A DNA stretch of 64,000 nt from an uncultured delta proteobacterium (GCA_963727485.1 CAVSGM010000002.1:1504001-1568000), one strand, 5' to 3'. Positions 11,565 to 60,866 are shown, counted from the first letter of the stretch. Notes: a model not told the origin generated them from the sequence alone. A program made the numbers and translations.

Positions 11565-12374
11565 ATGACCGGTGACGCCCGGGCCGCCCGGCGGCGGACG
11601 CGGCTCGCCCTCCGGGCGACCTGGCAGCCGCTCCTCCAACGGTTCCGGGTCCACGAGGGGCTGCTCCTGGCGGCGCTGGCCTCCCTGGTGGTGGTCGCCC
11701 GCCCGGCGCCGGGGCGCGGCCTCGCCGAGCTGGTCCTCGGGGTCTGGCTCCTGGCCCTCCTCTACGCCTACAACGACGTCCACGACGCCCCCCGGGACAC
11801 CGGCAATCCCAAGAAGGACCCGGCCCTGGTGGCGCACCTCTACGCCGACCGGGCCTGGCTTCGGGGCTGGATCCTGGCCCAGACTGGGGCGGTGGCCCTC
11901 CTCGCCGGGACTCTCCTCGGGACCGGGGCCCTCGTGGCCACCGCCGCCGTCGCCGGCCTCAACGTCGCCTACTCCCATCGCCTCAAGGGCGTCCCGGTCC
12001 TCGACGTCCTCACCGTGGGCCTCTGGGGCGCGGCCTACGTGACCCTGGTCCAGCCGCCGGTGGCCCTCTGCGTGCTCATCGGCGCCATGACCGCCATCAG
12101 CCACGTGTTCCAGACCCTCCGGGACCGGCGGGCCGACGCCGACGGAGGCGTGCACACAGTGGGGCAGCTCACGGAGGGCGGGGTGGCGATGGTGCTCCTC
12201 GGCGCGTCGGCGGTGCTCTTCGCGGTCCTCCTCCCGCTGGGCTGGCCCCTGGCGGCGAGCGCCGCCTTCCCCCTGGTCGCCTGGTGGGCCATCCGGCGAC
12301 CGGTGCCCGCCTGGCTCGTGGTGAAGGCCTACTTCGCCGCCGTGTGGGTGGTGGCCCTGGTGGTCCACCCGTGA
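11565..12374 (+). CDS. UbiA family prenyltransferase
   Basis: YAYNDVHDAPRD (NDxxD motif), AYSHRLKGVPVLD, RDRRADADGGVHT, multiple TM helices. Confidence 0.82.
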   Translation: MTGDARAARRRTRLALRATWQPLLQRFRVHEGLLLAALASLVVVARPAPGRGLAELVLGVWLLALLYAYNDVHDAPRDTGNPKKDPALVAHLYADRAWLRGWILAQTGAVALLAGTLLGTGALVATAAVAGLNVAYSHRLKGVPVLDVLTVGLWGAAYVTLVQPPVALCVLIGAMTAISHVFQTLRDRRADADGGVHTVGQLTEGGVAMVLLGASAVLFAVLLPLGWPLAASAAFPLVAWWAIRRPVPAWLVVKAYFAAVWVVALVVHP

Positions 12375-13378
12375 ACCTCCCCGACCGGGTCCGCCTCGCC
12401 TCGGCGTTCGGCCGCAGCCTGGTCGCCCACCGGCTGCACCTGCGCCCCCGGCCCTTCTCCGCCTCGGTGGCCGTCACCAACCGCTGCAACCTCCACTGCC
12501 GCTACTGCGACTTCCCCCGCCTCGACCGGCGACAGCTCGACACCGCCGACCTCACCACCGTCTTCGGCCGCCTCGCCCGGCTGGGGGTGCGGCGCCTGGG
12601 GCTGGTCGGCGGCGAGCCCCTGCTCCGGGCCGACCTCCCGGACCTCATCGCCGCCGCCCGGGACCTGGGCCTGTTCGTGAGCGTCAACACCAACCTCACC
12701 CTCCACGCGCGCCACCCCGAGCGCCTCCGGGGCGCCCAGCTGGTGTTCACCAGCCTCGACGGGGGCCCGGACGCCCACCGGGCCAACCGCGGTGACGAGG
12801 GGCCCGAGCCGGTCCTCGCCGCCATCCGCCGCCTCCGGGCCCGGGGGGTGCCGGTGATCGCCATCTTCGTGGTCACCGCCCACAACCTCGACGACGCCGG
12901 GGCCGTGCTCGACCTCGCCGCCGCCGAGGGCTTCCGGGTCCACTTCCAGCCCCGGTGCGAGGGGGCCCCGGTGGTGCGCGCCGACCCGGGCCTCGACGCG
13001 GACTCGGCGGCGCTCCGGGCGCTGTTCCGCGACCTCGCCGTCGCCCGGGCCCGGGGGGCGCCGGTGGCGAGCTCCGCCGGGTACCTCGCGTCCCTCGCCC
13101 GCTGGGAGGACTTCCGGGTGAGCGCCGTGGACGACCCCACCACCCGCTGCGCCGCCGGCACCGGCTTCCTCTTCGTGGATCCCCAGGGGCGGGCCTGGCC
13201 CTGCGCCTTCACCCAGGGCGTGGCCGAGCCCGTGGACCTCCTCCGCCAGGACTGGGCCCGGGCCTTCTCCGGTGACACCCCGTGCACCCGGTGCGCCGTG
13301 GGCCCCTACGTCGAGTTCAACGCCCTCTTCCGGCACCCGGCGGCCACCTCCCTGGCCCTCGCCCGCAGCTATGGCTAG
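12371..13378 (+). CDS. Radical SAM protein with C-terminal SPASM/twitch-like Cys motifs
   Basis: CNLHCRYC, GGEPLL, CAAG...GRAWPC, CTRC. GTG start overlaps the UbiA stop (GTGA). Confidence 0.9.
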   Translation: MNLPDRVRLASAFGRSLVAHRLHLRPRPFSASVAVTNRCNLHCRYCDFPRLDRRQLDTADLTTVFGRLARLGVRRLGLVGGEPLLRADLPDLIAAARDLGLFVSVNTNLTLHARHPERLRGAQLVFTSLDGGPDAHRANRGDEGPEPVLAAIRRLRARGVPVIAIFVVTAHNLDDAGAVLDLAAAEGFRVHFQPRCEGAPVVRADPGLDADSAALRALFRDLAVARARGAPVASSAGYLASLARWEDFRVSAVDDPTTRCAAGTGFLFVDPQGRAWPCAFTQGVAEPVDLLRQDWARAFSGDTPCTRCAVGPYVEFNALFRHPAATSLALARSYG

Positions 13379-15149
13379 CCGTCGGCGGTGGCCGGGTGCC
13401 GGGGAGATCGCGGTGGGGCTGGTGGCCGCCTCGGTGGTCGCCCTCGCCCTCGTGGTGTTCACCCGGGAGGCCGCCCGGCTCTCCCCGGCCCTGGCGAAGA
13501 TCCTGGTGCAGCAGCTCCAGGTGGCCCTGGGGGACGGGCACCTCTTCGCGCACCCCGGCGACCCCCTGCCCCTGCCCCGGGCCCTGCAGATGCTGTGGCT
13601 GGGTCCGGCGACCACCGCCGAGGCCCTCTTCACCCTGGCCCTCCGCCGCCTCACCGGGACGGTGGCGGCCCTCACCGCCCAGCGCGCCTTCCAGGTGGCG
13701 CTCTTCGAGACCGGGGCCCCGCTCCTCCTCGTCGCCGCCCGGCGCCGGGGGCTGCCCCGGGGCGAGGCCATGGCCCTGGCCCTGCTCTACGCCCTCCAGC
13801 CGGTGGTGCTCACCAAGCTCGCCTGGGACACGGTCCTCCCGGCGGCGCCGCTGGTGATCCTCGCCTACCTCGGGTGGCTGCAGCGGCGCTTCGGCCACTT
13901 CGCCGCCGGGCTCCTCCTCGCCGCCGCCACCCACCCCTTCGCCTTCGCCGGCGCCGCCCTGCTCACCGTTTGGCTGGGCCGGGGCGAGACCGATCCCCGG
14001 GCCCGCCGCGCCCTGGGGCGCACCCGCGTCGCCCTCCTCGCCCTGGGCACGGTCACCGTCTCGGGGGTGGTGCTCCCCGGCCTCCTCTGGCCCCACGGCC
14101 CGACCCTCGCCGGGGCCCTGACCCACGGCCGGACCCTCGTGGGCCTGGTCCGGGAGCCAGCGGGGCGCCTCCTGGGGATCCTCGGCACCAACGCCGCGGC
14201 CATCGGTCTGCTGGTCCTCGCCGCCGGCGGCGGGCTCCTGCGCCGGCCGGGGATGATCTGGGTGGTCGCCCTCGACCTCGGCTACGCCCTCTTCTCCTAC
14301 CAGGGACTCGACCACGGTCTGGTCGGCGCCACCTTCGGGCTGCTGGTGGTCCTGTGCGTCGAGGCCGCCGCCACCCGCCCGGGGCCCGGCGTCCGGTGGC
14401 TCCTCGGGGCCGGGGCGCTGGCGGTGGCGGTGGGCTGGGGCGTCGCCGGGCCCCGGAGCCTCCTCGCCCAGCTGGGCGATCCCGCGCCGCCCCCGGCGCT
14501 CGCCGAGCTCACCGCGGCGCCCCTGCCGGCGCTCGCCGGGCCCTGCGCCGTGGAGGCGACCCTGGTGCCCTACGTCCTCGATCGCTGCCCCGGCGCCCGG
14601 GCCTACGGGGACGGGGCTCAAGGCGATCGGCAAGCCCGGCCCCCGCCGGCGTTCGTCGTGCTGTCGCCGGCGCGCCTCACCGCCCCGGCGGCGGCCTGGC
14701 CCCGGGGGTACCAGGAGCTGCGCCGCCTGGACCGGGACCGCCGGGCGCTGGGGCGGATCCGCGCGGCGATCGCCGCCGGCCACCTGGGGCTGGTCCGGGT
14801 GGCCGGACCCCTGGTGGTCCTGGGCCGGGACCGGGGGCGGCCGGTGCCCCCCTGGATCCCCGCGGCCCTCGACCGGGTCCTCCAGACGGCGCCGGCAGAT
14901 CGGGCCGCCGGCCCACCTCCCGGGCGCGGGCCCGAGGTCACTCGCCGAACACCCGCTCCAGGCGCACCGCCGCGGGCAGGGTCCGCACCGCCTCCATCAG
15001 GGGCCCCCGCGCCCGGCGCCAGAACGCCGCCAGGGGCTCCCCGGGCTCGGTGTCCAGACGCCGTACCGCCGAGGCCAGCTGCCGCAGGGCCGGGGCCAGC
15101 TCCGGCACCGAGATCGGGTCGTTGTCGTAGCGCGGCGCCAGGCAGTTGA
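13371..15149 (+). CDS. Polytopic membrane protein, possibly glycosyltransferase-like (true 3' end uncertain)
   Basis: Many hydrophobic helices. ATG overlaps the radical SAM stop. The last ~70 codons overlap the opposite-strand halogenase and look non-coding. Confidence 0.55.
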   Translation: MASRRRWPGAGEIAVGLVAASVVALALVVFTREAARLSPALAKILVQQLQVALGDGHLFAHPGDPLPLPRALQMLWLGPATTAEALFTLALRRLTGTVAALTAQRAFQVALFETGAPLLLVAARRRGLPRGEAMALALLYALQPVVLTKLAWDTVLPAAPLVILAYLGWLQRRFGHFAAGLLLAAATHPFAFAGAALLTVWLGRGETDPRARRALGRTRVALLALGTVTVSGVVLPGLLWPHGPTLAGALTHGRTLVGLVREPAGRLLGILGTNAAAIGLLVLAAGGGLLRRPGMIWVVALDLGYALFSYQGLDHGLVGATFGLLVVLCVEAAATRPGPGVRWLLGAGALAVAVGWGVAGPRSLLAQLGDPAPPPALAELTAAPLPALAGPCAVEATLVPYVLDRCPGARAYGDGAQGDRQARPPPAFVVLSPARLTAPAAAWPRGYQELRRLDRDRRALGRIRAAIAAGHLGLVRVAGPLVVLGRDRGRPVPPWIPAALDRVLQTAPADRAAGPPPGRGPEVTRRTPAPGAPPRAGSAPPPSGAPAPGARTPPGAPRARCPDAVPPRPAAAGPGPAPAPRSGRCRSAAPGS

Positions 15150-16561
15150 GCTGCCAGTTCTCGGTCTGGAAGAGGCTGGGGGCGGCCGGGTCCCTCGGCT
15201 CCACCAGGAAGAAGAGGCTCGGGGGCCTCGGCCCGTCCTGGTGGCGCAGGTGGAGACAGAGGAAGCCCAGCTCGTCGGGGTCGGCGTCGTCGAGGGCCGG
15301 CCGATCGTCGCCGGTGGCCCGGGCCGCCCGGCTCCGGTGGTCGGCGGTGCGCCGCTCGTCGAGGGCGAGGTTGCGGACCAGGCCGCTGGTGAGCACCAGG
15401 AACGCCTTCTGGGGATCGAGGCGCGGGGCCGTCTCCACCAGGATCTCCTTGGACTCCCAGAAGTAGTCCTCCTTGGCGAGGTTCTGCTGGTAGAAGAACC
15501 GCACGATCCGGGTGAGGTCGTCGAAGAGCGCGCGGTGGGCGGTCTCGTACTCGGCCACCAGCGCCGCCTCCTCGGCCCCCTCGCGCACCAGCCGCACCGC
15601 CGCCCCGGCCACGTGCCAGCCGGCGTGCATCGCCAGGAACACCCCCTGGGAGAGGACCGGGTCGAGGAAGCCCGCCGCGTCACCGGCGAGGAAGTACCCG
15701 GGGCCGGCCACCTGGCGCATCCGGTAGCTCCAGTCCCGCTCGTGGCGGACCTCGGTGACCCGCTCGGCGCCGGGCCCCAGCACCGCCCGGATCTCCTCGC
15801 ACCCCGCCACCGCCGCCTCGAAGCGCCGGGTGCGCTCGGCCTTGTCGGCCTTGTCGTCCTCGTCGAGGCGGACCACGCCCACCGAGGCCGTCTCCGGGCC
15901 CAGGGGGAAGTGCCACAGCCAGTGGCTGCGATCGGCGGCGAAGAGGGCCTGGCGCGCCCGGGGATGGGGCTGGCGGCCGCGGCTGCGGTAGTGGGCCCAG
16001 GCGGCCTGGTGCTCGAGGCCGGGGATGGGCTCGCGGAGCTTCAGGTCCCGGGCCACCACCGCGGCCTGGCCGGTGGCGTCGAGGGTGACCCGCGCCGCCA
16101 CGGTGGTTTCGCCCCCGCCGGCGGGGTCGGCGATCCGGGCGCCCTGGAGGCGGGGGCCGTCCCAGAGCAGGCGGGTGGCCACCGCCCGCTCCCGGACCTC
16201 GGCGCCGGCCCGGCGGGCGGCCTCGAAGAGGATGGCGTCGAACCGCGACCGCTCCACGAACCAGGCGTGGTCGTAGGCCTCGGTCTCCTCGAACCACAGG
16301 TCCCACCGGGGGGTGCGCCCCCAGCGCAGGTGGGTGGAGCCCGACTTGCGCTCGAAGGCGGCCTCCACCTCGGCCAACACCCCCAGCTCGTCGAGGATCG
16401 GCACCACCCCGGGCAGGAGGCTCTCGCCCACGTGGGTGCGGGGGTGCCGCCGGGCCTCGACCAGCACCACCCGGAGGCCGGCGCGGGCGGCGAGGGTGGC
16501 GGCGGTGGACCCGGCGGGACCGCCGCCGAGGACCAGGAGAATCGACCGGGGCCCCGCTCAT
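14938..16561 (-). CDS. Flavin-dependent halogenase-like oxidoreductase (+1 frameshift near 16540)
   Basis: Corrected N-terminus VDLLVLGGGPAGSTAA, HVGESLLP, ERKSG (putative catalytic Lys), WLWHFP, GDAAGFLDPVLSQGV. Confidence 0.85.
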
Positions 16562-18458
16562 CGCCGGGGGGCCCCGGCCGCGAGGAGGGCGGCCAGCGGC
16601 CCGGCCACCGAGGCGAGCAACCGGTCGAGGCGTCCCAGGTCCTCACCGTCGAGATGCTGGCCCTCGTAGGCCGCGGACATCCCCTCCACCTCCTGGTAGC
16701 AGGGGCGGCCGCCGCCGTCCCCGCGCCAGAGGACCACTGCCAAGCGTCCCTGGGGGGCCACCAGCTCGAGGCGGACCTCGGCGTCGTCCACCCGGCCGGC
16801 GGCGGCGAGGACCCAGGCCCCGCCGGTGGCCGTCTCGGTGGCCTCGGAGAGGCGATCCAGGGCGGGGGTGGAAAGCGGCGTCGAGGCCGGGGCCCCGGAG
16901 GTCGCGCCTCCCGGCGCCCCGGCGTCGTGGGCCGCGTCGGGGGCGGGGGCCTCGGGCGTGGGGGGCGGCGCCGGCCAGGGGCCCTGGACCCGGACCCGGG
17001 CCACGGCGTCGCCCGCGGGCACCACCGCCGGCGGCAGGGTCGCCACGGGCCCCCGGTACCGGGCGTAGAGCCGGCCCCATCCCTCGGGCCGGCGCACGGG
17101 GTGGGTGAAGAGCATCAGCTCAGTGTCCAGGTCCACCGAGAGCCGCGCCGGGGCCAGGTTCCACAGGCGCTTGCGCCCCAGGAAGAACACGTCCGGCCAC
17201 CCGGCGTCGAAGTCGAGGACCGAGAGGAGATCCCGGGCCCAGACCTCGAGTCCGCAGGCGAACGCCGTACGGGGATTGGGGGCGGGGGCCTCGGTGAAGG
17301 CGGCCCGGGTTGGGTCGTAGGCGAGGACCCGCGGCGGCAGGGAGGCGTGGTGGAGCACCAGGGCCGCCTGGGGGCGCACCCCCGGCGCCAGAATCCCGCC
17401 CGGCCTGGAGGGCGTGGAGCCCCTTGAAGGTGGTGCGGTTGAACAGGTCCCCGGCCCAGGCCTGGCACCCGGTCTCGAGGCGCGCCCACTCGTCCGCGGT
17501 GAGGGCCGCGTCGCCCGAGAGCGGCCGCGTCCCCATGGGGTTCGCCGGGCGCGGCGCCGGGGCGGCCGGCGACGCCGGCTCGGCGCGGAGGAACGGGGCC
17601 TGGTCCCGCACCGCCACCACCTCGCCCCCGGCCATCACCACCGTCAGCCCCGGGGCCGTCGCCCGCACCGGCTGGCGGAGCCGGGTCCCGACCCGGGTGG
17701 CCACCCGGCCGGGGTCGGCGACGAAGACCGCCTCGCCCAGGGGCCCGAGCGGGCCGGTGGGCCGCAGCCCCTCGCCATTGACCAGGAACTGCGCAGGCCG
17801 GCGCCCGGGGAAGGCCGCAAGGTACTCAGCGACCACCTGCTCGGCCACCGCCCCGTCGGGGTCCTCGTCCCGGGGCAGCCAGGGCCGGAACACCCCCTGG
17901 TCGAGGTCGGGCATCGGCCTCACCCAGACCCCGGGCACGGCAATCTCCCCCAGGACCTCGGCGGCCCAGGCCGGCGGCTGGTGGAGATCCACGGAGGTGA
18001 AGAAGCTGCCGTCGCCCCCGTGGGGCTCGACCACCAGCGGCGCGGTCGCCAGCTCGTTGCCCCCGGTGGGGAGCACCTCGACCGCGGGCGCCAGGGGCCG
18101 GAATCCGCGAATCGCCGAGGTGGCGATCCTCCCCTGGGCGCAGGGCCACCACCTGGAAGCCCAGCTCGGCAACCGCGGCCCGGGCCGCCGCGGAGCTGTG
18201 CGCCGGGAGGTGGATGGGCACCCGACGGTCGAGGAGGGCGAGGCTCGGCAGGTCGAGGTGATCCGGGTGCTCGTGGGAGATCACCACGCCGTCCACCGGC
18301 GGCATCGACGCCAGGTCCAGGTCCCGTCCGGGGTGGAGCGCCATCCGGGTCAGGGGCAGGTGGGCGAGGCCCGGTCGGAGCAGCGGATCGACGAGGAGCC
18401 GGGTGTCGCCGCTGTCGATGAGCCAGCCCTGGTGGCCCAGGGCGGTGACCGTAAACAC
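16558..18458 (-). CDS. Metallo-beta-lactamase-fold protein with long C-terminal extension (+1 frameshifts near 18103 and 17393)
   Basis: LGHQGWLI, LLVDP, SHEHPDH (HxHxDH). Three ORF pieces join after single-base corrections. The stop overlaps the halogenase ATG. Confidence 0.78.
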
Positions 18459-18574
18459 CGGCGCATCGTACCAGAGGCCCGGCGCCGGAAACAGGCGCGG
18501 CCGCCCAGTGGGGGCACGGACCCGCCCCGGGCGGGCCCTGGTCTGGCGGCGGCCCCCTCGGCTAGAGTCGGCGC

Positions 18575-20791
18575 ATGGCGGACACCACCGATCTCGTGGT
18601 CATCGGCGGCGGCCCCGCGGGTGGCCTGGTGGCGGCCCTGGTCCGGCAGCAGGACCCGGACCGCCGGGTGGTGCTCCTCGAGCGGGGACGGTTCCCCCGC
18701 CACCACGTCGGCGAGTCGTCGATCCCCTCGTGGCGGCCGATCCTCGAGCGGGCCGGGGTGCGGGAGAAGGTCGACGCCGCCATCCGCACCCGGAAGGTGG
18801 GCACCATCTTCTGGTGGGGCACCAGCGAGGATCGGACCTGGACCATCGACTTCCGCGACACCCGCACCGGCGGCGCGCCCCCGGCGAGCTACCAGCTCGA
18901 CCGCTCGGTCTTCGACCAGGTGCTCCTGGACCACGCCGCCGAGCTCGGGGCCGAGGTGCACCAGGAGGCCACGGTCACCGCGGTGACGCCCCTGGGCTCC
19001 GGGCGCCACCGGGTCACCTGGCAGGCCGGCGACGAGACCCACCACCTCGAAACCGACTACGTGGTCGACGCCTCGGGACAGGCGAGGCTCCTCGCCCGGC
19101 TCTTCCGCCTGCCCCTGGTGGGCTTCGACGACATGAACAACTTCGCCGTGGTCGGCTACTGGCGGGGGAGCAAGCTCGCCCAGTACGACTGGCCGGTGGC
19201 CGAGCACGAGCGCTGGACCTACATCGCCGCCTCCGACGACGGCTGGGTCTGGCACATCCCCCTCGACGGCGACCTCGTGAGCGTGGGGCTGGTAACCGAC
19301 GGAGACTCCCTGCCCAAGGGGGGCGCCTCCGAGCTCGAGGCCCACTACCTGCGCAACGTCCGCGCCTGCCCCCCGGTGGCGGCGCTCCTCGAGGACGCCA
19401 CCCTCGACCGCCACCCCCTGGCCCCCCAGGCCCTGACCACGGTGCGGGACTGGTCCTATCACTGCGAGGAGGCCTGCGGCCCCGGGTGGTTCGTCGCCGG
19501 CGACGCGGCGGTGTTCGTGGATCCGGTGCTCTCCAGCGGGATGCTACTGGCGGCCAACGGCGCGTCCATGGCCGCCAACGCCCTCCACACCCTGTGGCGC
19601 GACCCGGCGGTGGACCCGGCCCTGCTCCGCCGCAGCTACACCGATACCTACCGGGACATGGCCGGCAGCTACCACCGCCTGGCGCGCATCTGGTACGCCC
19701 GGAACTTCAAGGCCTCCACCTGGCACTGGGAGGCCAAGCGCCAGCGGCTGATGGCCGGGGGCCGCGCCGACGCCGAGACCGACGCCCGCGCGTTCCTCGC
19801 CCTCTGCCTCGGCTCGTTCACCAACCCCCTGGAGGCGGCGATCCGCGGGGATCGGGGAGACCTGCTCCGGCCCGACGCCCGGATCTACGCCGGCCACCTC
19901 TTCGCCGACGACGTCCGCGACAATCCCCTCTACGCCGTCCTCGACGACGCCACCGAGACCGGCGCCACCGAGACCGAGACCCGGGCGGCAATCCGGGCCG
20001 ACACCGCCCGGCAGTGGCAGCGGATGCTCCATGCCCGCCCCCGCCTCAATCACTGCACCTGGGAGACCCGGGAGAGCTACGTCACCGACGGGTACCTCAA
20101 TCACTGGGAGCGGGTGCGGCTCATCGAGGTCCGGGCCCGCGCCGAGGACGACGCCTTCGGGCGGGTGATCCTGCCCTCCCCCGAGGTCGCCCGGGACGGG
20201 GTGCTGCCCTTCCTCGACGGGCGGCGCACCCTCGCCGAGGCGCTGGAGGCGGCGGCCGCGGACACCCCGGTGGGCTCCCAGGCCTACGACGAGCTCCTCG
20301 AGGGCCTCCAGTACCAGATCTTCCAGCTCGACTTCCGCTGCTGGCTCGACGGGGTGGCCGAGGCCCCGCCGGCGCCGACCCCCGAGGCCCTGCCCGCGCC
20401 CCTCGAGGCGGTGCTCCGGGGCGAGACCGGCGGGCCGGCGGCGCGCTTGGAGATCGGGCTGCTGGGAGAGACGGCGACGGTGCGCTTCGAGGACGACTCG
20501 GCGCCCTGGACCCTCACCCGCCTCGACCGCTCGCCCGAGGGCTACCGCTACGCCGCCTCGGCGACCACCGCCTTCGCCTACCGGGGCCGTGACCTGGCCC
20601 CCGAGGCCCGGGCGCGCCTCGACGACCTGGTGGCGGCGCTCCGGCGCCTCGAGGCATCGGACCCGGAGGGCGCGGACGGCCTCTGGCCCCGGATCCTCGG
20701 GCCCCGGGCCGGGGAGGTGGTGGCGCCGGCCGCCGCTGCCGAGCTCCCCGACCTCACCGAGCCGCCCCCGGCCGTCGACGGGGTCGGGTGA
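18575..20791 (+). CDS. Flavin-dependent halogenase-like enzyme with C-terminal RRE/PqqD-like region
   Basis: GGGPAG, HHVGES, TRKVG, WVWHIP (WxWxIP), GDAAVFVDPVLSSG; C-terminal FLDGRRTLAEAL. Confidence 0.88.
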   Translation: MADTTDLVVIGGGPAGGLVAALVRQQDPDRRVVLLERGRFPRHHVGESSIPSWRPILERAGVREKVDAAIRTRKVGTIFWWGTSEDRTWTIDFRDTRTGGAPPASYQLDRSVFDQVLLDHAAELGAEVHQEATVTAVTPLGSGRHRVTWQAGDETHHLETDYVVDASGQARLLARLFRLPLVGFDDMNNFAVVGYWRGSKLAQYDWPVAEHERWTYIAASDDGWVWHIPLDGDLVSVGLVTDGDSLPKGGASELEAHYLRNVRACPPVAALLEDATLDRHPLAPQALTTVRDWSYHCEEACGPGWFVAGDAAVFVDPVLSSGMLLAANGASMAANALHTLWRDPAVDPALLRRSYTDTYRDMAGSYHRLARIWYARNFKASTWHWEAKRQRLMAGGRADAETDARAFLALCLGSFTNPLEAAIRGDRGDLLRPDARIYAGHLFADDVRDNPLYAVLDDATETGATETETRAAIRADTARQWQRMLHARPRLNHCTWETRESYVTDGYLNHWERVRLIEVRARAEDDAFGRVILPSPEVARDGVLPFLDGRRTLAEALEAAAADTPVGSQAYDELLEGLQYQIFQLDFRCWLDGVAEAPPAPTPEALPAPLEAVLRGETGGPAARLEIGLLGETATVRFEDDSAPWTLTRLDRSPEGYRYAASATTAFAYRGRDLAPEARARLDDLVAALRRLEASDPEGADGLWPRILGPRAGEVVAPAAAAELPDLTEPPPAVDGVG

Positions 20792-43917: not shown

Positions 43918-46108
<2,191 letters not shown>

Positions 46109-48598: not shown

Positions 48599-49180
48599 AT
48601 GAAGAAGGTCGATCGTCGCGACGCCCTGAAGTTCCTCGGTCTTGGCATCCTGGCCGCCGGGAGCGCTCCGCTCCTCGGCGCCCGGCGCGCCGCCGCCGAG
48701 CCCCGGCTCCCCCGGGCCGGCCGCGGGACGCCCAAGGCCACCGTCTCCCGGGACGGCGCCGCCCCGGCGGTCCGCGCTCCCCTCGACACCCCGGTGCCCG
48801 CCGACCCCACCTCGGCCCTGGCGCCGCTGGGCGTCGGCAGCCGCCTCGCCGGCTCGACCATCCTCCGCGTCGACGGCCCCGACCACGGCGCCATCCACGT
48901 GGACCTGCGGGCGGCCGACGGCCACACCTTCCGGGTGGAGATCTGCCGCCACGACGCCGGGGGCCCGGCGCCGGTGACCCGCACCCGTCACTACGACCTC
49001 TTCCTCGCCAACGGCGGCCGCGGGGACAAGCGCACCGACCGGTCCGAGGGCCTGGCGGTCCTGGGGCTCACCGAGGCGCTGCGCCACAACGAGGCGCGCG
49101 CCCGGAAGCTGCCGGTGATGACCATGCGCCGCCGGTGGGCGAGCTTCCGGCCCACCGAGCTCTCCCGCTACGACGGGTAG
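48599..49180 (+). CDS. Tat-exported hypothetical protein
   Basis: MKKVDRRDALKFLGLG twin-arginine signal with AxA-type cleavage; GGAGG ribosome-binding site upstream. Confidence 0.75.
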   Translation: MKKVDRRDALKFLGLGILAAGSAPLLGARRAAAEPRLPRAGRGTPKATVSRDGAAPAVRAPLDTPVPADPTSALAPLGVGSRLAGSTILRVDGPDHGAIHVDLRAADGHTFRVEICRHDAGGPAPVTRTRHYDLFLANGGRGDKRTDRSEGLAVLGLTEALRHNEARARKLPVMTMRRRWASFRPTELSRYDG

Positions 49181-51485: not shown

Positions 51486-51803
51486 CTACCAGGACCCGTG
51501 GGACCCGTGCGAGCCGTGGGACCCGTGCGACCCATGCGAGCCGTGCGAGCCGTGGGACCCGTGCGAGCCGTGGGACCCGTGGGAGCCGTGCGACCCGTGG
51601 GAGCCGTGCGAGCCGTGGGAGCCGTGCGAGCCGTGGGAGCCGTGCGACCCGTGGGAGACGTGCTGCGCCAGCAGGCGCCCGCCACCCGGGACCTCACCCG
51701 CCTCGGTCGCGGACGCGGCCTCCTTGGACGAATCCTTCAGCTCGTGCTCCAGCTCGGAGAGCAAACCCTTGGAGCGCTTCTTGTACTTGGGAATCTTTGC
51801 CAT
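51486..51803 (-). CDS. hxsA: His-Xaa-Ser repeat precursor peptide (HxsA-like): 47-aa leader + HVS-(HGS)18-W
   Basis: Direct translation; AAGGGG ribosome-binding site; lies immediately downstream of hxsB. Confidence 0.93.
51492..51662 (-). repeat. 19 tandem 9-bp units encoding His-Xaa-Ser
   Basis: Units CAY-GGS-TCS (first unit CAC-GTC-TCC). Variation among the HGS units is synonymous only. Confidence 0.95.
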
Positions 51804-53356: not shown

Positions 53357-53574
53357 TGGCCCCCCCGCTTCTCTTCGATGGTGAGCGCCAGGGCGTAGTT
53401 GCCGAACTCGCCGGCGACCTCGTCCTCGTCGGCGTCGTCCTTGGCGGTCAAGGCAATCTCGAAGTAGGGCATCTTCTGGGTGGAGGCGATCTCGGCGACC
53501 TCGTCGAAGACCTCGGCGGTGGTCTCGAGGGCGGCGGCCGAGTAGGCCTGGTGGTGGAAGCGCAGGTGCCGCAC
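53353..53574 (-). CDS. HxsD-like small protein
   Basis: F...YS..AL...EFGNYAL pattern resembles the upstream HxsD; its stop overlaps the hxsB GTG. Confidence 0.72.
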
Positions 53575-53577
53575 CGG

Positions 53578-54102
53578 TCAGCCCCCCGCCGCCTGGTCGT
53601 CGCCACCGTCCGCCGGGGGCGGGCCCTTGGGCGCACCCTCCTTGGGGGCCTCGGCCTCGCCCTGCTTGCCGTACTTCTCCTCCCAGCTCATGGCGATGCC
53701 GAGGGGATCCTCGAAGGCGTCGTCGGAGAAGTCCATGTCGCCGGCGAGGTCGTCGAGGCTGGCGGTGCCGGTGGCCCCGGCGAGCGCCTGGGCGGCCACC
53801 GCCTCGATGATCGGCTTGTTGTACTCGGTGATCTCCCGGCGCCAGGCCTGGGACAGGAGCTCGTTGGCGAACTCCCCGGCGAGCGCCGAGAGGTCGTCGG
53901 CGGAGAGGGCCTCGCGCCCCCGGAGCACCACCTGCACGTGGGTCTCGTCGGGCACGTCGAGGAGGACGTAGCACCGGTCGATGAACACGTAGGCGGCGCC
54001 GTAGATGGCGTCGAGGGGGTAGAGGCTGCGCTCGAAGCGCACCTGCACCCGGTTGTCGTCGGCTTCGACCTGGATCTGGTCGAGCCCCTGGTCCTTGTCC
54101 AC
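53578..54102 (-). CDS. hxsD: His-Xaa-Ser system protein HxsD
   Basis: [19 protein letters not shown]...[16 protein letters not shown]...[10 protein letters not shown]; operon position. Confidence 0.82.
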
Positions 54103-54228
54103 GTCTGCCCCCTTCGGGTCCGGACGGATCGGTTCCGCGAAACGAAGGCCGATGATGGCGGATGGGTGCCCGGCAGATCAAGCGTGGGAAGTACCCGAGA
54201 GCCGGGAAGGGGACTACGCTGCCCCGCC

Positions 54229-56028
54229 ATGGCCGCCTCGCCCCCCTCGCCCCTGCGCCGCCTCTGGCGCCAGGCCGCCGCCCACCGCCGGCAGGTGGCC
54301 CTGGCGACCGGCTGCTCGATCCTCAACAAGGCCTTCGACCTGGCGCCCCCGGTGCTCATCGGGATGGCGGTGGACATCGTGGTCCGCCGGCAGGGGAGCC
54401 TCCTGGCCCACCTGGGCGTCGCGGCCCCCCGGGACCAGATCCTGGTTCTGGCCGGGCTCACCTTCGTCATCTGGGCCCTGGAGAGCCTCTTCGAGTACCT
54501 CTACGCCATCCTCTGGCGAAACCTCGCCCAGACCGTGCAGCACGAGCTGCGCCTCGAGGCCTACGCCCGGGTCCAGAGCCTGGAGCTCGCCTACTTCGAG
54601 GACCGGTCCACCGGCGGGCTGATGGCGATCCTCAACGACGACGTCAACCAGCTCGAGCGCTTCCTCGACGGGGGCGCCAACGACCTGCTCCAGGTGGCCA
54701 CCACCGTGGTCCTGGTGGGCGTCGCCTTCTTCACCCTGGCCCCGAACATCGCCTGGCTGGCGTTCCTCCCGATCCCGGTGATCCTCTGGGGGTCGTTCCG
54801 GTTCCAGCGGCGCATCGCCCCGCGCTACGCCGCGGTCCGCGCCCAGGTCGGGGTCCTCTCGGCCCACCTCGCCGGGAGCCTCGGGGGCATCGCCACCATC
54901 AAGAGCTTCACCACCGAGGCCCGGGAGGTGGCGCGCCTCGCCGCCGCCTCGGACCGCTACCAGGACGTCAACCGCGACGCCATCCGCCTCTCCTCCGCCT
55001 TCAGCCCCCTCATCCGCGTGGTGATCCTGGTCGGCTTCACCGCCACCCTGGTCTACGGCGGCTTCGAGGCCCTCGCCGGGACGCTGGCCGTGGGCGCCTA
55101 CAGCGTCATGGTCTTCCTCACCCAGCGCCTGCTCTGGCCGCTGACCCGCCTGGGGCAGACCTTCGACCTCTACCAGCGGGCCATGGCCTCCACCACCCGG
55201 ATCCTCGACCTGGTGGACACCGAGCCGGCCATCGTCTCCGGGGCCTCGCGCCTGCCGGTGGACGCGGTGCGCGGCGCGGTGCGCTTCGACGACCTCTGCT
55301 TCGCCTACCACCCGGACGCGCCGGTCCTCGAGCACCTCGACCTCGAGGTCCCCGCCGGGGAGACGGTGGCGGTGGTGGGGGCCACCGGCTCCGGGAAGAC
55401 CACCCTGGTCAAGCTCCTCCTGCGCTTCTACGAGGCGTCCGGCGGGCGGATCACCGTCGACGGCCGCGACGTGCGGGACCTCGACCTCGGCGACCTCCGC
55501 CGCGCGGTGGGCCTGGTGAGCCAGGACGTGTTCCTCTTCCACGGCACCGTCCGCGAGAACATCGCCTACGCCCGCCCCGACGCCTCCGAGGCCGAGATCG
55601 TGCGGGCGGCCCGGATCGCCGAGGCCCACGCCTTCATCGAGGCGCTCCCCGACGGCTACGACACGGTGGTCGGCGAGCGGGGGCAGAAGCTCTCCGGGGG
55701 CCAGCGCCAACGGATCTCCATCGCCCGGGCGGTCCTCAAGGACCCGCCGATCCTGGTCCTCGACGAGGCCACCAGCGCCGTGGACAACGAGACCGAGGCG
55801 GCGATCCAGCGCTCGCTCGCCCGCCTCTCGGTGGGCCGGACCACCCTGGTCATCGCCCACCGCCTCTCGACCATCCGCCACGCCCACCGGATCGCGGTCC
55901 TCGCCGGCGGCCGCCTGGTGGAGTCGGGGACCCACGACGAGCTCCTCGACCGGGACGGGATCTACGCCTCGCTGTGGAAGGTGCAGACCGGCGAGGTCGT
56001 CCCCGAGGTCGAGGCGGCCGCGGGGTAG
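54229..56028 (+). CDS. ABC exporter, fused permease/ATP-binding (MsbA/MdlB-like)
   Basis: TM domain, [31 protein letters not shown]. Confidence 0.95.
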
Positions 56029-56131
56029 GCACGCGGCAGACGCGCCCTGACTGAGGGCGGCCGGCGGGGGGAGCCCGGGCGCCGGTCGATTCTCCATATC
56101 CGGGTTGGGATCCGGCTGATATGCTCCTAGT

Positions 56132-56773
56132 ATGAATACCTACCGATCGCTGATGACGCTGGTGTTCTTCTCATTCACCTTCTCAGCCCTGGGGTGCGGG
56201 GGAGGCTTCGATCTTCAGGGGGCGCGAGCCGGGAGCGGGTTCGATGTCAACGCCGAGGGATGGACGATCACGGGCGACGCGCAGGCCGCGCACGTCAAGC
56301 CCGACTACAACGGCACCGGCGGCAACCCCGGTGGCCTCATCAGCGCGGTCGACGACGTCACCGGGGGCACCTGGTACTTCCAGGCACCGAGCAAGTACAT
56401 GGGCGATGCCAGCTCGACCTATGGCAAGTCGCTTCGCTTCGACCTGAAGACGACGGACGTGTCGAACCCCTTCGACAACTTCGACGTCATCCTCTCCGGC
56501 GCGGGGAAGGTGCTGGTGTTCAACACCGCCAACAACGCCGCGGTGGGGAAGTGGACCTCGTACAAGGTCAAGCTCGATGAGACCGCCGGGTGGGGGGTCA
56601 TCAACGCGGTGGGCGACAGCTACCCTTCCGACTGGAGCACCCTCCCCAAGCCCTCGGCCGCCGATTTCAAGGCCGTCCTCGGAGACGTCACCCAGCTTCT
56701 CATCCGCGGCGAGTTCAACGACGGGCCCGACACCGGCTTCCTCGACAACGTCCGCTTCGGCACCCCCAACTGA
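56132..56773 (+). CDS. Lipoprotein with laminin B (IV)-like domain
   Basis: Lipobox ALGC; WYFQAPSKYMGD...YGKSLRFDL and FKAVLGDVTQLLIRGEF...LDNVRF resemble laminin B domains. Confidence 0.72.
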   Translation: MNTYRSLMTLVFFSFTFSALGCGGGFDLQGARAGSGFDVNAEGWTITGDAQAAHVKPDYNGTGGNPGGLISAVDDVTGGTWYFQAPSKYMGDASSTYGKSLRFDLKTTDVSNPFDNFDVILSGAGKVLVFNTANNAAVGKWTSYKVKLDETAGWGVINAVGDSYPSDWSTLPKPSAADFKAVLGDVTQLLIRGEFNDGPDTGFLDNVRFGTPN

Positions 56774-57042
56774 TCCGGCTTCGGGTCAGTCGGTGTAGGC
56801 CACCGCGACCCAGCGCCCGTACTTCTTCTTGAAAACGGCGACGTAGCCGTGTCCGCCGAGGTCGGCGATGGCCACCCAGGCGTCCTTCAGGTCCAGCTTG
56901 CCGAGGCGGGCCGGCGGCGGGCCGTACTGCTGGACCATGGCGTCGGCCGGGAGCGTCTTCATCCCGTAGAGGGGCAGGCGGGAGAAGTCCTTGCCCTGGA
57001 AGAGCTCGGTGAGCAACTCGTCGACGGTGGGGCCGTCGCCGT

Positions 57043-57756
57043 CAAGTCCGGTGGGCGGAGCCCGAGCGTGGGCCAGGCCTCGTCGGCGCGGCACCGTGGG
57101 CAAGCCCAGGTGATCGAGGATACGGCGGACCACCGCGGGCTCCATGATCACCGCGACGACCTCCACCCTGCCTTGGCACTCGGGGCAGGTGGTGAGGTCG
57201 TGCCCGAAGACGCGCTTCAGCAGGTCGGCCCAGGGTATCCGGCGCTGGCGGACGTCGCTGGGCGGCTCCCAAGGCTGCCCACCGCTCCGGCTCGAGGTCG
57301 ATTGCTCGGGGTTCTGGCCCTTCGGGGGGACGAAGGCGGCCAGCCGGCGCAGGAGGTCGACCGGATCGAGTAGCAGCTGGCTGCGACCATCGCGCAGCGG
57401 CTTTCGCAGGCGATAGTAGACCTCGCCCCGCGTGCCCTCCTCCAGGCGGTGCTCGGCGAAGGGAGGCCGCAGACCGTAGCGCAGGATCCGCTCGAGGCCG
57501 GCCCGGTCATTGGGGTTGAAGGCGACGAGCTGCTCTCCGATGGACCGGCCCAGCTCGGCTGCGAGAACACGCCGTCGGGGAGGAAGCTGTGGAAGTGCAA
57601 GTTGAGGTTGAGTGCGTCGCCGAAGCGCTGGATGCAGGTGATGGAGCCAGCGAGGGGCCGTGCCACCCCGTTGCGACGGGCGCGACGGCAAAGCCAGGCG
57701 AAGAGCACCCGCTGGAAGACTCCGAGGACAGGCGTGACCAGCTCGGGACGCGTCAC
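57043..57756 (-). mobile_element. Degenerate IS91-family (Y2 rolling-circle) transposase fragment
   Basis: QRFGDALNLNLHFH, LRYGLRPPF, WADLLKRVFGHDLTTCPECQG...RILDHLGLP. Frameshifted, N-terminally truncated, internal segments missing. Confidence 0.82.
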
Positions 57757-58223
57757 CAGAAGGTCGCCAGGTGCCCGCGCACCAAGCGGTGGAAGAGACC
57801 CGAGGCCGGGGTGCGCGGTTGATGGGGGCGCTGCGAGGCCTGGAGAGACGGGGCGAGCAAGGGTCGCCGTGGGCTCGACTCGCCCTGGACGACGTCCGCG
57901 ATCCGGCGATGACGGCCCCAGGGAGCCACCGATGACGCGGCTGCGCTCACTCCGAGGGCTGGGCCGCGGGCGACCGCCACCGCGCTAGATGGTCCAGGAC
58001 GGATCCGAGTCACAGACCCCGGCCTGGTACACCGCCGCCACGATGCGCCCGGAGAGGTGGGCGGCGCGAACGCGGAAGGCGCGCTCGCCGAGGAGCAGGT
58101 GGCTCCCGAAGCCCACCAGGCCCAGGAAGACGATGCTCGCCACGGTCCCGCCCGCGGGCGCCGAGCCGGTCGGCCACTGGACCGTGTAGCGCCAGTTGCC
58201 CAGCAGGACCTTGGGATAGCCGT

Positions 58224-60530
58224 CTAGATTGCGGCGTTGACGTCGTCCTCGGTGAACTCCCACGGCAGCTCCTTGGAGGCCTTCAGCTCGTAGAACCCGC
58301 CGCAGAAGATCTTGTGGGGGCACGCCTCGCACTCCTCGTGATGGCTGCGCTGCGCCTTGAGGTACTCGAAGAGGTTCACGTCGGTGTTGTTCACGAACAC
58401 CATGTGCCGCTCGAGCTTGAGCAGGTCGCCCATCATGAACCGCTCGTAGCCGGGCATGAAGCAGAACGGGAGGTTGATGACCTGGAACTTCATCTTCCCC
58501 TCCCACCGGTCGATGACCGACATGGCCACCTTCGCCGCCGCGGCGGTGTCGGGGTTGACGAACACCGTGGCCCGGCCGAAGGGGGTGAGGAACTGGAGGT
58601 TCATCCACCGCAGCCCCAGGTCCCAGGCGAGCTCGGCCATGGCCGGCAGGTGGGCGTAGTTGCTCTTGGTGACGGTGACGTTCATCCCCAGCTCGACCCC
58701 CAGGGGCCGGTGCTTCACCGCGTGGCGGACCCCGGCGCAGGTCTGCTCGAAGGCCTCGGCGACGCCCACGTTCTGGGCGTGGGTCCTCGCGTCGTGGCCG
58801 TGGATCGAGAAGAGCAGGGTGGTCAGCCCCGAGCGCGTAAGGCTCCGGGCGAAGTCCTCGTAGACCAGGCGCCGGCCGTTGGTGGTGACGTTGATGCGCC
58901 GGTAGCCCAGGGCCCGGGCGTGGCGCACCAGGGGGATGATCTCCTCGTAGAGGGTGGGCTCGCCGCCGTCGAAGTCGACGAGATCGAGGCCCTGGGCCCG
59001 GTAGCGGGCGAGGATCTTCTTCTGGTTCTCGAAGCTCCCGTCGAGCTGGGTCCGGGTGCCCACCGCACAGAAGGTGCAGCGGTTGTTGCACCGGTAGGTG
59101 ACGTTCATGATCACCTTCCGCGGCCCGCGGCCCGCCTCCAGGCGCCGGTCGAAGGTCCACTTGAAGCGGCGGAGCTCCTCGGCGGTGAAGTCCTCGGAGG
59201 TGGTCACCGGGGTGTGCTGGAAGAGCGGCCCGAAGTCGTCGACCACCGGCAGGGGGGTCTTCGCCGCGGCGGCGGCGGTGTCGGCGAGGCGGGTGCCCGG
59301 CAGGGGCGTGGCGAACTGCACCCCGGGCCAGGCGCCGTAGGCCTCGTGGAGGTGCAGGGCCCAGTCGAGGGTGGTGTTGATCTGGGCCTTGGTCTCCCCG
59401 GGCATCCCGATGATGAAGTGGACCAGGGTGGGGATCCCGCGCGCGGCGGCGCCGGCGACCGTCTCCTCGACCCGGGCGAGGTCGAGGTTCTTGCCCACCA
59501 CCCGGTCGACCACGCCCTGGTCGCCGCTCTCGGCGGAGACCGAGAGGGTGGCCACGTGGCCGGCCATGGCGTCGAGGTGCGCCTCGGCCACCCAGTCGGC
59601 GCGCATCCCGTTGGGGAAGTCGAAGGCGAGGTCGTGGGGGGCGAGGGCGGCGAGGAGGGCCTCGAAGTGGCCCGGGTCGACGTTGACCATCTCGTCGAGG
59701 ACGTCGAGGCGGGTGGCGCCGTGCTCCCGGACCAGGGCGTCGACCGCCCGCGCCAGGTAGGCGGCGTCGTACCGGCGCTGGGTCTTCTTCTTCCCCTGGC
59801 GGCCGGGGTTCGAGGAGCAGTGGGCGCACCGGTAGGGGCAGCCCCGGCTGGAGACCATCGGCAGGGTCCGCCCGTCCACCGGGAAGGCCCAGGGCCCGCG
59901 ACCCAGGCCCGCGACCACCCGGGCGAGGAAGGCGTCCCGGGCGGGCAGATCGACCAGGTCCCAGGCGGGCAGCGGCAGGGCCGAGAGGGCGTCCACCTCG
60001 CCGCCGACCACGGTCTCGGGGACCTCGGGGCGGCCGCCGTCGAGGAGGCGCTGGAGGAGGGGCACCAGGGCCTCCTCGGCCTCGTACTTGAGGAGGGCGT
60101 CGACCTCGGGGTAGCTCGCCAGGGTCCCCTGGCCCGGCGCCTCCACGTAGTGCTGCCCGCTCTGGTAGAGGTCGGCGAGGACCACCGGCGCCTCCGGGAG
60201 GCGCGCCCGGAGACCCTCGAGGAGGGCCCCGAGGAGGGGATCGCGCCGGGGCGGGCGGTGGAACGGCGTGAGGGTGACCACCACCGCGTCGGGGGTGCCG
60301 AGGGCCCCGAGGACCTCGTCGAGGCCCGCGCCGAGGCGGACCCTGTCGCCGTCGAGGTCCTCGAGGGTGCTCCCGGGGAGGGCGAAGGCGTCGAGGAGGC
60401 GCACCTCGAGGCCCGCCTCCCGGATCACCGCCGCCGCCTGCGCCCCGGCGAGGTCGCAGTGGTAGGGGTAGTCGATGAAGTCCCGGGAGAGCCGGAGCGG
60501 CGGCTGGACGACGAGGACCCGAGGGGTCAT
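58224..60530 (-). CDS. B12-binding-type radical SAM domain fused to a second HxsC-like radical SAM domain
   Basis: RVLVVQPP, YEAEE, LPLPAWDL, SRGCPYRCAHC, SAESG, FIIGMPGET; then CNNRCTFC, GGEPT, NLPFC, CEACPHKIFCGG. Start may be 60554. Confidence 0.88.
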   Translation of the reverse strand: MTPRVLVVQPPLRLSRDFIDYPYHCDLAGAQAAAVIREAGLEVRLLDAFALPGSTLEDLDGDRVRLGAGLDEVLGALGTPDAVVVTLTPFHRPPRRDPLLGALLEGLRARLPEAPVVLADLYQSGQHYVEAPGQGTLASYPEVDALLKYEAEEALVPLLQRLLDGGRPEVPETVVGGEVDALSALPLPAWDLVDLPARDAFLARVVAGLGRGPWAFPVDGRTLPMVSSRGCPYRCAHCSSNPGRQGKKKTQRRYDAAYLARAVDALVREHGATRLDVLDEMVNVDPGHFEALLAALAPHDLAFDFPNGMRADWVAEAHLDAMAGHVATLSVSAESGDQGVVDRVVGKNLDLARVEETVAGAAARGIPTLVHFIIGMPGETKAQINTTLDWALHLHEAYGAWPGVQFATPLPGTRLADTAAAAAKTPLPVVDDFGPLFQHTPVTTSEDFTAEELRRFKWTFDRRLEAGRGPRKVIMNVTYRCNNRCTFCAVGTRTQLDGSFENQKKILARYRAQGLDLVDFDGGEPTLYEEIIPLVRHARALGYRRINVTTNGRRLVYEDFARSLTRSGLTTLLFSIHGHDARTHAQNVGVAEAFEQTCAGVRHAVKHRPLGVELGMNVTVTKSNYAHLPAMAELAWDLGLRWMNLQFLTPFGRATVFVNPDTAAAAKVAMSVIDRWEGKMKFQVINLPFCFMPGYERFMMGDLLKLERHMVFVNNTDVNLFEYLKAQRSHHEECEACPHKIFCGGFYELKASKELPWEFTEDDVNAAI

Positions 60531-60566
60531 GACGCCCGTTGTACCATCTGCCATCCTGGCTCCGCC

Positions 60567-60866
60567 ATGAGCGACCCCACGCCCCGCGACCGTCTCGCCC
60601 GCCTCATCCGCCCTCTGCCCGTGGACGGACCGTTCCTCAAGCAGTGGCGGGTGGGCGCCGTCGAGGGCGACGCCGAGGGGCTGAAGGTGACCCTCGACCA
60701 CCCGACCTACGGCCCGGTGGCCCTCGAGATCGCCCGGGCCTCCGGCGCCCCGGCCTTCGCCCGGACCAACCACTTCGAGGTGCGCCATGGCGCCGGCGGG
60801 CTCACCGAGCGGCAGCAGGACGCGGTGCGGACCCTGGTCCGGGCGATCCTCGCAAACGGGATGTGA
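60567..60866 (+). CDS. Small hypothetical protein (stand-alone copy of the recurring beta-sheet/helix module)
   Basis: MSDPTPRDRL...AFARTNHFEVRHG...AVRTLVRAILANGM; codon usage fits the rest of the window. Confidence 0.65.
   Translation: MSDPTPRDRLARLIRPLPVDGPFLKQWRVGAVEGDAEGLKVTLDHPTYGPVALEIARASGAPAFARTNHFEVRHGAGGLTERQQDAVRTLVRAILANGM

Follow-up and report, generated by a model that had tools for sequence, protein, structure and literature searches.

An expanded HxsA4/HxsC4-type His-Xaa-Ser locus in a delta proteobacterium and a ~75-residue module shared by its enzymes and exported proteins

We analysed a stretch of 64,000 nucleotides from an uncultured delta proteobacterium (GCA_963727485.1 CAVSGM010000002.1:1504001-1568000; the window, in what follows), which holds between positions 11,565 and 60,866 a large locus built around a precursor peptide of His-Xaa-Ser repeats. 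The core of this locus is the HxsA4/HxsC4 variant of the His-Xaa-Ser (HXS) system catalogued in NCBIfam, and most of the radical S-adenosylmethionine (SAM) genes that surround it travel with the precursor from genome to genome. In addition, cytoplasmic enzymes and exported proteins of the locus carry a ~75-residue module that is new to the catalogues. The locus is very probably one system centred on HxsA4. Our reading, to which we give a probability of roughly 0.5, is that the (HGS)n tail of the precursor would be modified, that tailoring enzymes would be recruited through the module, and that the product would leave by twin-arginine translocation (Tat) and stay in the envelope, where it may keep phage out. 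Taken by itself, the envelope is the probable destination of the product, while an antiphage role, by analogy with the canonical system, is tentative and somewhat short of even odds.

Five proteins of the locus, all encoded on the minus strand, pass their NCBIfam cut-offs: HxsD (53578..54102; TIGR03976, 60.8 bits, cut-off 50), an HxsD-like protein (53353..53574; NF038315, 58.7 bits, cut-off 41), the SPASM-type radical SAM maturase HxsB (51829..53350, frameshifted in the assembly; TIGR03978, 382.4 bits for the N-terminal piece alone, cut-off 370), the precursor HxsA4 (51486..51803; NF038313, 120.5 bits, cut-off 55) and HxsC4 (47405..48472; NF038332, 540.7 bits, cut-off 500). An earlier note, made from the sequence alone, had described the order hxsD, hxsD-like, hxsB, hxsA and advised a search with the Hxs models; that search recovers the four genes in this order and places them in a variant already catalogued as HxsA4/HxsC4/HxsD-like. 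We found no paper on HxsA4, HxsC4, their model numbers or the repeat, subscription papers lying outside the search. The closest solved relatives of HxsB are PDB 5wgg, AnSME (4k37), 8vpo and ChlB (9gm3), and HxsC4 has no close solved relative, the best being BlsE (E 9e-9).

HxsA4 has 105 residues, arranged as a 47-residue leader without a twin-arginine motif followed by HVS(HGS)18W, that is, 19 HxS triplets (HVS and 18 HGS) and a final Trp. It has neither a hydrophobic segment nor a peptidoglycan-binding Pfam domain. As the earlier note had proposed, the precursor is single: a six-frame reading of the genome gave no other open reading frame (ORF) with at least three tandem HxS. All 30 complete repeat runs of relatives also end in W. 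Of the 533 triplets in these 30 relatives, 481 have Gly in the middle and 24 have Ala (HAS), the first triplet has Cys or Val, and a single precursor has up to seven non-Gly triplets. This variation in the middle residue speaks for H-x-S as the repeat unit; HxsA4 matches Pfam Collagen with 38.2 bits, and a collagen-like Gly-X-Y triple helix was rejected, as Gly is not fixed at every third residue. Precursors of HxsA4-type genomes contain 10-59 evenly spaced His without basic residues. One relative encodes two tandem HxsA4 precursors, of 35 and 59 repeats (G163:C104:65353-66744, L022-L023).

GC content is ~75% across the window and single-base frame breaks are frequent, and genes were mapped with a dicodon codon model. 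A six-frame scan of the window returned 19 matches to CxxxCxxC, three of them in shadow frames and 16 in codon-supported radical SAM frames (12485, 20830, 21772, 23233-, 26156, 28368, 29478, 30320, 37584, 39455, 48340-, 49259, 50206, 53050-, 59090- and 59840-, a final minus marking the minus strand). A seventeenth domain (23458-24669, minus strand) has an atypical C-x27-CxxC motif that is kept in the unbroken orthologue of genome G335. The scan and the gene map thus sustain the earlier count of 13 radical SAM genes and 17 domains in the 49-kb locus. Pfam Radical_SAM is passed by 16 of the domains, the atypical one having no Pfam match of any kind; the whole genome has 48 such matches, 17 of them in the window, where one domain is split in two. 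In a 47-domain tree, 12 window domains cluster with two canonical HxsC and with three further domains that the genome encodes outside the window (SH-aLRT, a branch-support test, 91), and the paralogue nearest to HxsC is rS11 (50164..51401, plus; SH-aLRT 86), which has orthologues of 47-72% identity in seven of the first ten loci compared. An auxiliary motif, CxxCx5CxG, is common to nine of the 16 window domains examined and is missing from the C-terminal domain of rS03 and the N-terminal domain of rS05.

Assembly state matters for these readings: hxsB and six other genes are frameshifted, and the window has 21 frame switches against 17.2 per 64 kb genome-wide. Contigs from short reads, near-identical in sequence, are one base shorter at both 49857 and 50063, and rS03 is a single unbroken ORF in G335; the breaks that were checked therefore look like assembly errors and not decay. 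The hxsB break is spanned by a 99% contig (one mismatch) with one gap, whose position is not listed. This verdict covers the breaks at 49857 and 50063 and those of hxsB and rS03. Short contigs of ~99% identity to 36000-55900 were found in three metagenome studies of salt marshes (X1, X3, X4), which suggests a salt marsh as the habitat of the organism.

Other genomes also speak for a single system. Of 401 genomes of the phylum that were surveyed, HxsA4 was over its cut-off in 31 and HxsB in 50, tallies that include G196, with no match over either. Eighty genomes were fixed before accessory genes were counted: 33 HxsA4-type (29 over the HxsA4 cut-off and four added by HxsB) and 47 others. Five of the latter have canonical hxsB; another is G032, in which a low-complexity match passes the HxsA4 cut-off and hxsB is absent. 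Thresholds were set to separate orthologues from paralogues. In counts where kin genomes are not independent, rS08, the most constant accessory enzyme (39357..41023, plus; HxsC-type), occurs in 33/33 HxsA4-type genomes, rS07 (37554..39359, plus; an HxsC-type domain fused to a class I methyltransferase, from Pfam and tree) in 27/33, rS13 (58224..60530, minus; a B12-type radical SAM domain joined to one of HxsC type) in 22/33 and rS03 in 12/33, all against 0/47 others; the rS02 family reaches 24/33 against 1/47. We count rS07 and rS13 as core enzymes. The neighbourhood comparison that the earlier note had called for thus finds most of the radical SAM genes tied to hxsA4; the independent occurrence that would have told against its reading was not seen for the radical SAM genes, and its description of a greatly expanded Hxs system stands. 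The expansion is large and at the same time usual for the HxsA4 variant: four relatives (G229, G269, G002 and G052) reach 16-19 motifs within 60-100 kb, so the size of the locus is typical of the upper range, and a record size was rejected.

HxsA4-type loci keep their gene content but not its order, and a large number of paralogues are found at satellite sites, a long way from hxsA4. The system likewise extends beyond the span analysed here. A second intact hxsB stands elsewhere in the genome (G000:C1:650801-653226) beside an HxsC-type gene and without a precursor, and there are two further satellite sites. One of them (G000:C2:395400-404700) encodes a B12-type radical SAM protein, a 982-residue HxsC-type fusion, an rS03-like gene with a terminal module and a domain like the C-terminus of rS04, and adjoins a glycosyltransferase/hydrolase/acyl-carrier block. 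Two genomes of the same family, G128 and G332, keep only the remote hxsB/HxsC-type pair and have no hxsB beside hxsA4. Accessory genes of relatives vary and include WelO5, carbamoyltransferases, GT2 glycosyltransferases, epimerases and, in G348 and G228, UbiA beside rS01. Nitrogenase-like H/D/K genes, under all nif and protochlorophyllide reductase (DPOR) cut-offs, are found in the HxsA4 loci of G332 (L008:4366-8403), G046 (L039:5991-12896) and G002 (L035:16166-18253), with the module fused to a D/K-like subunit; no nitrogenase-like gene was found in the genome studied here (G000, 93% complete).

The module was found by eye, as a beta-beta-beta-beta-helix segment of ~75 residues without a Pfam match. 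There are at least nine copies in the window: in two flavin-dependent halogenase/hydroxylase-like proteins (Hal1 and Hal2), a metallo-beta-lactamase (MBL)-fold protein, rS04, rS06 (twice), a small exported protein (31779-32366), a Tat-signal protein and a stand-alone protein of 99 residues (60567..60866, plus). A profile built from eight window copies found five non-orthologous copies in the loci of relatives, and iteration on relatives alone gave 23 credible copies; the alignment (A4) excludes a 70-residue ORF of G046, a shadow-frame artefact. With the relatives-only profile, seven segments of the locus rank in the top 18 of 5,563 coding segments, one of them significantly, and with hhalign all nine window copies outscore 609/609 random segments; there is some circularity in both tests, since the window-built profile had supplied the first five copies used for training. 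The significant match, at the top of the ranking, is the stand-alone protein (E 9e-6), which is 37% identical to the C-terminus of the rS03 homologue of G163 and was modelled with a pLDDT (predicted local distance difference test) of 82.

The module occurs in 19/33 HxsA4-type genomes, five of them outside the training set, and in 0/47 others, and its alignment matches the separately collected Tat-protein family (hhalign 95%, E 3.6e-8). Two AlphaFold models (pLDDT 82) share the same order of elements, a beta-meander and a helix. In relatives, the module is fused to radical SAM and nitrogenase-like enzymes and stands behind the signal peptide of proteins with 7-10 transmembrane segments. Pfam gave no match at E<0.01 for 24 members, a PDB sequence search was empty, and single-sequence phmmer found no link among the window copies. 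Foldseek and VIA-align gave no clear fold match for either model (the top structural Z scores, 7.0 and 5.6, fall short of one), with no RiPP (ribosomally made, post-translationally modified peptide) recognition element (RRE) or PqqD chain among the matches listed; the ESM Atlas, queried with the Tat domain, returned only leads below 0.9. Because cytoplasmic enzymes and exported proteins of one pathway both carry it, the module could bind what crosses the membrane, and we consider it an even bet that it binds the precursor or its product.

The leaders of the precursors bear on export. Among 30 relatives, 16 leaders have TRR and a hydrophobic stretch, four have TRG and ten, as here, have neither. 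A module protein with a twin-arginine signal is encoded in 10/10 relatives without the motif in the precursor, and the domain occurs in three of the other 20, with a simple membrane anchor in one of them and a signal like that of lipoproteins in another. In the window this protein (48599..49180, plus) consists of one module behind a twin-arginine N-terminus, homologous to the fused module. Tat-signal module proteins occur in 13/33 HxsA4-type genomes against 0/47 others and belong to a family of 921 clusters with nearly invariant R6 and R7; TatC is present in the genome. The earlier note had listed an ABC (ATP-binding cassette) exporter as part of the system. Its orthologue is absent from the ten first loci, and in G283 and G332 hxsD lies less than 4 kb from rS13 without the insertion genes; as a dedicated transporter it was rejected, being neither conserved nor outside an insertion, and Tat is the likelier route.

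The canonical HXS of Escherichia coli and Klebsiella, HxsD-HxsB-HxsC-HxsA, is an antiphage system (Li et al., Nat Commun 2026, PMC13128918). According to that article, HxsA is processed by HxsB, HxsC and HxsD, with an HxS repeat gaining +8 Da (+C/-4H); its product is periplasmic and delays phage DNA entry, the effector requiring B, C and D. The remark of the earlier note that it knew of no characterised product is thereby superseded. By analogy, HxsB, HxsD and rS11 would install the core His/Ser change on the triplets of HxsA4. A constant accessory set, rS07 with its methyltransferase, rS08, the B12-type rS13 and HxsC4, would complete maturation. The lineage-specific Hal1, Hal2, MBL protein, rS03, rS04 and rS06, and in relatives the nitrogenase-like proteins, may be recruited through the module. 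Because the leader here lacks an export signal and relatives without the Tat protein carry a twin-arginine motif in the precursor, matured HxsA4 might hitchhike on the Tat-signal module protein. The exported module copies, the UbiA-family protein and the GT-C-like membrane proteins could then hold or further decorate the peptide at the membrane, where the matured peptide might act as a barrier to phage DNA entry.

Several observations weigh against this reading, together with the kinship of the genomes counted and the circularity mentioned above. The tree is a quick one, with few starred branches and one long-branch stray inside the HxsC-type group. Canonical HxsC (TIGR03977) is absent over its cut-off, the best score in the window being 109.1 of 267.9 (control, HxsC of G157, 397.8), and HxsA4 has no signal peptide, no peptidoglycan-binding domain and none of the basic residues credited with DNA binding in E. 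coli. Hal1 (1/33 HxsA4-type genomes against 1/47), Hal2 (2/33 against 1/47) and the HExxH protein (2/33, away from hxsA4, against one weak match in 47) have no support from co-occurrence; the earlier note had tied all three to the system, and such sporadic genes, in 1-2 of 33 genomes, do not bear this out. HxsB is carried by 14/18 and 4/4 genomes of two families, a spread more like that of a stable trait than of a patchy defence system, and PADLOC finds a defence pair beside 1/6 HxsA4-type flanks (AbiE, G228) and Shango beside 1/2 canonical loci. The module was not found in 14/33 HxsA4-type genomes, eight of the nine window calls are individually sub-threshold and were chosen by eye, and a profile of 150 Tat-family sequences recovered only the stand-alone copy in the window. 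Finally, three genomes with RR precursors still have the Tat-protein domain, and the pattern of the Tat protein across relatives may be one evolutionary event.

Part of this evidence favours a different purpose for the same pathway, in which the (HGS)n tail would become, instead of a phage barrier, a polymer of the envelope or a cofactor that binds metal, resembles a pigment or is redox-active. This is a serious rival, if an unlikely one, because the antiphage role comes by homology only, the effector lacks basic residues and an anchor, the system is near-universal in two families and a defence pair stands at one locus in six. Rows of 10-59 evenly spaced His without basic residues would suit it, as would the B12-type radical SAM, methyltransferase, UbiA and module-fused nitrogenase-like H/D/K proteins, which parallel tetrapyrrole-tailoring kits (group VI nitrogenase-like proteins are given as uncharacterised in PMC13474568), the scarcity of defence neighbours and the lack of any match to HxsC4 in the plasmid and phage collections searched. 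Set against these are the antiphage function of the only studied relative, canonical HXS, a tailoring set so variable from genome to genome that diversification suits it better than a single fixed cofactor would, and a genome that, at 93% completeness, shows no nitrogenase-like gene.

A second alternative limits the action on HxsA4 to the core: the module would be a protein-protein docking unit, and many accessory enzymes would act on lipid, glycan or surface proteins, some being inactive scaffolds. UbiA, GT-C, GT2, epimerases and carbamoyltransferases do recur in HxsA4 loci, rS08 has large surface proteins with Ig domains beside it in two families, two HxsC-type domains (of rS03 and rS05) lack the auxiliary motif, many paralogues sit in distant satellites, and the core enzymes rS07, rS08, rS11 and rS13 carry no module. 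This too is a serious rival. We nevertheless judge it distinctly less probable, for copies of the module lie on either side of the membrane, the exported peptide being the obvious ligand for them to share, the genome has no second precursor, and the pattern of Tat copies tracks the signal of the precursor. A chance pile-up, in which radical SAM genes and genes for tailoring, all unrelated, have gathered about an hxs operon of four genes, or else a pseudogene cluster in decay, would account for the passenger blocks, the transposase fragment and the 21 frame switches, and is very improbable and already largely refuted by co-occurrence of up to 33/33 against 0/47, a genome-wide frame-switch rate that is already 17.2 per 64 kb, and short-read contigs and relatives with unbroken genes, on which pseudogene decay was rejected.

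If the preferred reading of an expanded, module-recruited HxsA4 pathway holds, the locus offers a short, uniform substrate with 19 sites and a defined set of core enzymes (HxsB, HxsD, rS07, rS08, rS11, rS13 and HxsC4) for solving the radical chemistry of HXS, which is unsolved even in E. coli. The module provides a test of which enzymes belong to the pathway, could be a new peptide-recognition domain of use in RiPP engineering, and links uncharacterised nitrogenase-like proteins to a peptide substrate. A bolder version, which we think rather unlikely as a whole, is that a new substrate-recognition domain, unrelated to RREs, enables whatever enzyme gains it (a radical SAM enzyme, flavin halogenase, metallo-hydrolase, nitrogenase-like reductase or membrane glycosyltransferase) to join a poly-(His-Gly-Ser) assembly line on both sides of the membrane and doubles as the Tat carrier; the product would be a lineage-specific, heavily cross-linked and decorated envelope polymer that diversifies against phages, and the missing substrate of the nitrogenase-like enzymes. 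The locus also raises the question whether a defence effector can diversify chemically instead of by sequence.

The remaining genes are given in order of position. The locus opens, on the plus strand, with a UbiA-family prenyltransferase (11565..12374; Pfam UbiA 39.4 bits, over cut-off) and rS01 (12368..13378; motif scan, Pfam and tree), a radical SAM protein that is not of HxsC type; its homologues (28-34% identity) stand in the loci of G348, G228, G002 and G052, adjoined by UbiA in the first two. The first of the GT-C-like proteins named in the earlier note (13388..14885, plus) is polytopic by its hydrophobic segments and sub-threshold by profile (DUF2079, 23.8 bits, cut-off 28.2), and the second (32430..34213, plus) passes PMT_2 (28.4 bits, cut-off 26.1). 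Hal1 (14938..16561, minus) scores 97 bits with Trp_halogenase and has WxWxFP and, by module score, a C-terminal module; Hal2 (18575..20791, plus) scores 102.6 bits, has GxGxxG, WxWxIP and a C-terminal module, and finds its best homologue (40%) in the HxsA4 locus of G348. Both fall far below the CmlS cut-off (900; Hal1 182 bits) and also resemble, below cut-off, the protein hydroxylase QhpG (Hal1 150 of 240). Between them, the MBL-fold protein (16558..18494, minus; three frame pieces) has Lactamase_B_2 at 37.8 bits, HxHxDH and, by module score, a C-terminal module.

rS02 (20788..22647, plus) has two HxsC-type domains by tree and profile scores, and rS03 (22560..24989, minus; two frame breaks) joins the atypical-motif domain to an HxsC-type one. 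An SDR (short-chain dehydrogenase/reductase) domain is probably fused across a frame break to rS04 (25130..28279, plus), which has an HxsC-type domain, a module and a C-terminal domain (27077-28279) with paired Cys motifs; this last domain has no Pfam, NCBIfam or ESM Atlas match and recurs beside rS08 in G335 and in the satellite locus. The B12-type and SDR fusions of the earlier note are putative, resting on sub-threshold matches or, for SDR, on reading across the break. rS05 (28351..30251, plus; profile scores and tree) combines HxsC-type and twitch-type domains, with homologues of its C-terminus in G332, G229 and G128. rS06 (30275..31828, plus; tree and module score) has an HxsC-type domain and two C-terminal modules, with orthologues (63-70%) in G332 and G283, and a homologue search with its C-terminus found one other protein only. 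The frameshifted exported protein (31779..32366, minus; three-frame reading and module score) has a signal peptide, a module and a C-terminal hydrophobic segment. rS10 (49236..50070, plus) is HxsC-type, and its frame breaks are those absent from the short-read contigs.

About 9 kb of the span is taken by a surface protein and a kinase block, and ~4 kb by the insertion. The large Ig-repeat surface protein (34310..37537, plus), of uncertain membership, has a MYXO-CTERM-like end (19.2 of 20 bits) and lies upstream of rS07 only in G128, G332 and G283. In two different families, large surface proteins with Ig domains, unrelated to each other, stand next to rS08/rS07 (window 34310-37537, L033:12660-16313 and L037:13953-17561), and it is possible that they are carriers or partners of the product. 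The Ser/Thr kinase, PEGA protein and lipoproteins at 41136..46135 (minus; profile matches) are syntenic with rS08 only in three genomes of the same family; they were rejected as pathway parts and are probably passengers. The insertion (54162..58013; profile matches), with the ABC exporter, a laminin-B lipoprotein and an ISCR/IS91 transposase fragment, is probably no part of the system either. Flanking M16 peptidases were rejected as leader proteases, with one 26% match in ten loci. The aKG-HExxH-type (alpha-ketoglutarate) peptide beta-hydroxylase (46233..47435, plus; one frame break) matches TIGR04267 (92.7 bits, cut-off 40) with HExxH present. In another genome an hxsB-like gene (~315 bits, under cut-off) adjoins an HExxH gene (L106, G246:C1:6519843-6523289), and some nine genomes of that family have a gene scoring alike; this is a separate radical SAM/HExxH pair. 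Of the protein types that the earlier note had listed, two of the Trp_halogenase family, HExxH, MBL, methyltransferase fusion, UbiA, a PMT_2 membrane protein, Tat protein and ABC exporter are present. PADLOC matches among window proteins are generic (viperin, kinase). Elsewhere, a complete Shango (SngABC) stands directly beside a canonical myxobacterial hxs operon (L090:13641-19811, G157), and FtsH-ternary-system-like small genes (fvmX3/X5 profiles) with a reverse transcriptase lie inside the HxsA4 locus of G228 (L017:9214-10544).

Compared with known systems, the locus agrees with the NCBIfam set (NF038313, NF038332, NF038315, TIGR03978 and TIGR03976) in matching all five models, which leave uncovered 11 other HxsC-type domains, the shared module, the Tat partner and the tailoring enzymes. 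RREs are small domains found stand-alone or fused to tailoring enzymes in RiPP clusters. The module resembles RRE/PqqD in its small size and in occurring both by itself and attached to various enzymes that tailor the product of a single cluster, and differs in its predicted beta-meander and single helix, its lack of a Pfam match and its presence on exported proteins. SPASM maturases and aKG-HExxH pairs cross-link three-residue motifs; HxsB, a relative of the former, and an HExxH domain occur here as well, the latter stand-alone and sporadic. The His-Xaa-Ser system has an original bioinformatic definition, cited in PMC9062424, and the canonical antiphage HXS, by PMC13128918, has four genes in >99.8% of systems. 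With it the locus has in common HxsB and HxsD, enzymes of HxsC type that bear a second cluster motif, a substrate made of HxS repeats and likely export. In that account canonical HXS has one HxsC, five basic repeats, and a signal peptide and peptidoglycan-binding domain on HxsA, whereas here there are 12 HxsC-type domains, none over the HxsC cut-off, and 19 neutral repeats ending in W. The gene order is D, D-like, B, A4 with convergent HxsC-type genes, not a four-gene D-B-C-A operon; the locus works like HXS in its core and falls outside the canonical system on three of its membership criteria. The proposed export has a precedent in the Tat hitchhiking reported for PaoABC (PMC4273604): in both, a signal-bearing partner carries a signal-less one, the cargo here being a modified repeat peptide whose binding is predicted.

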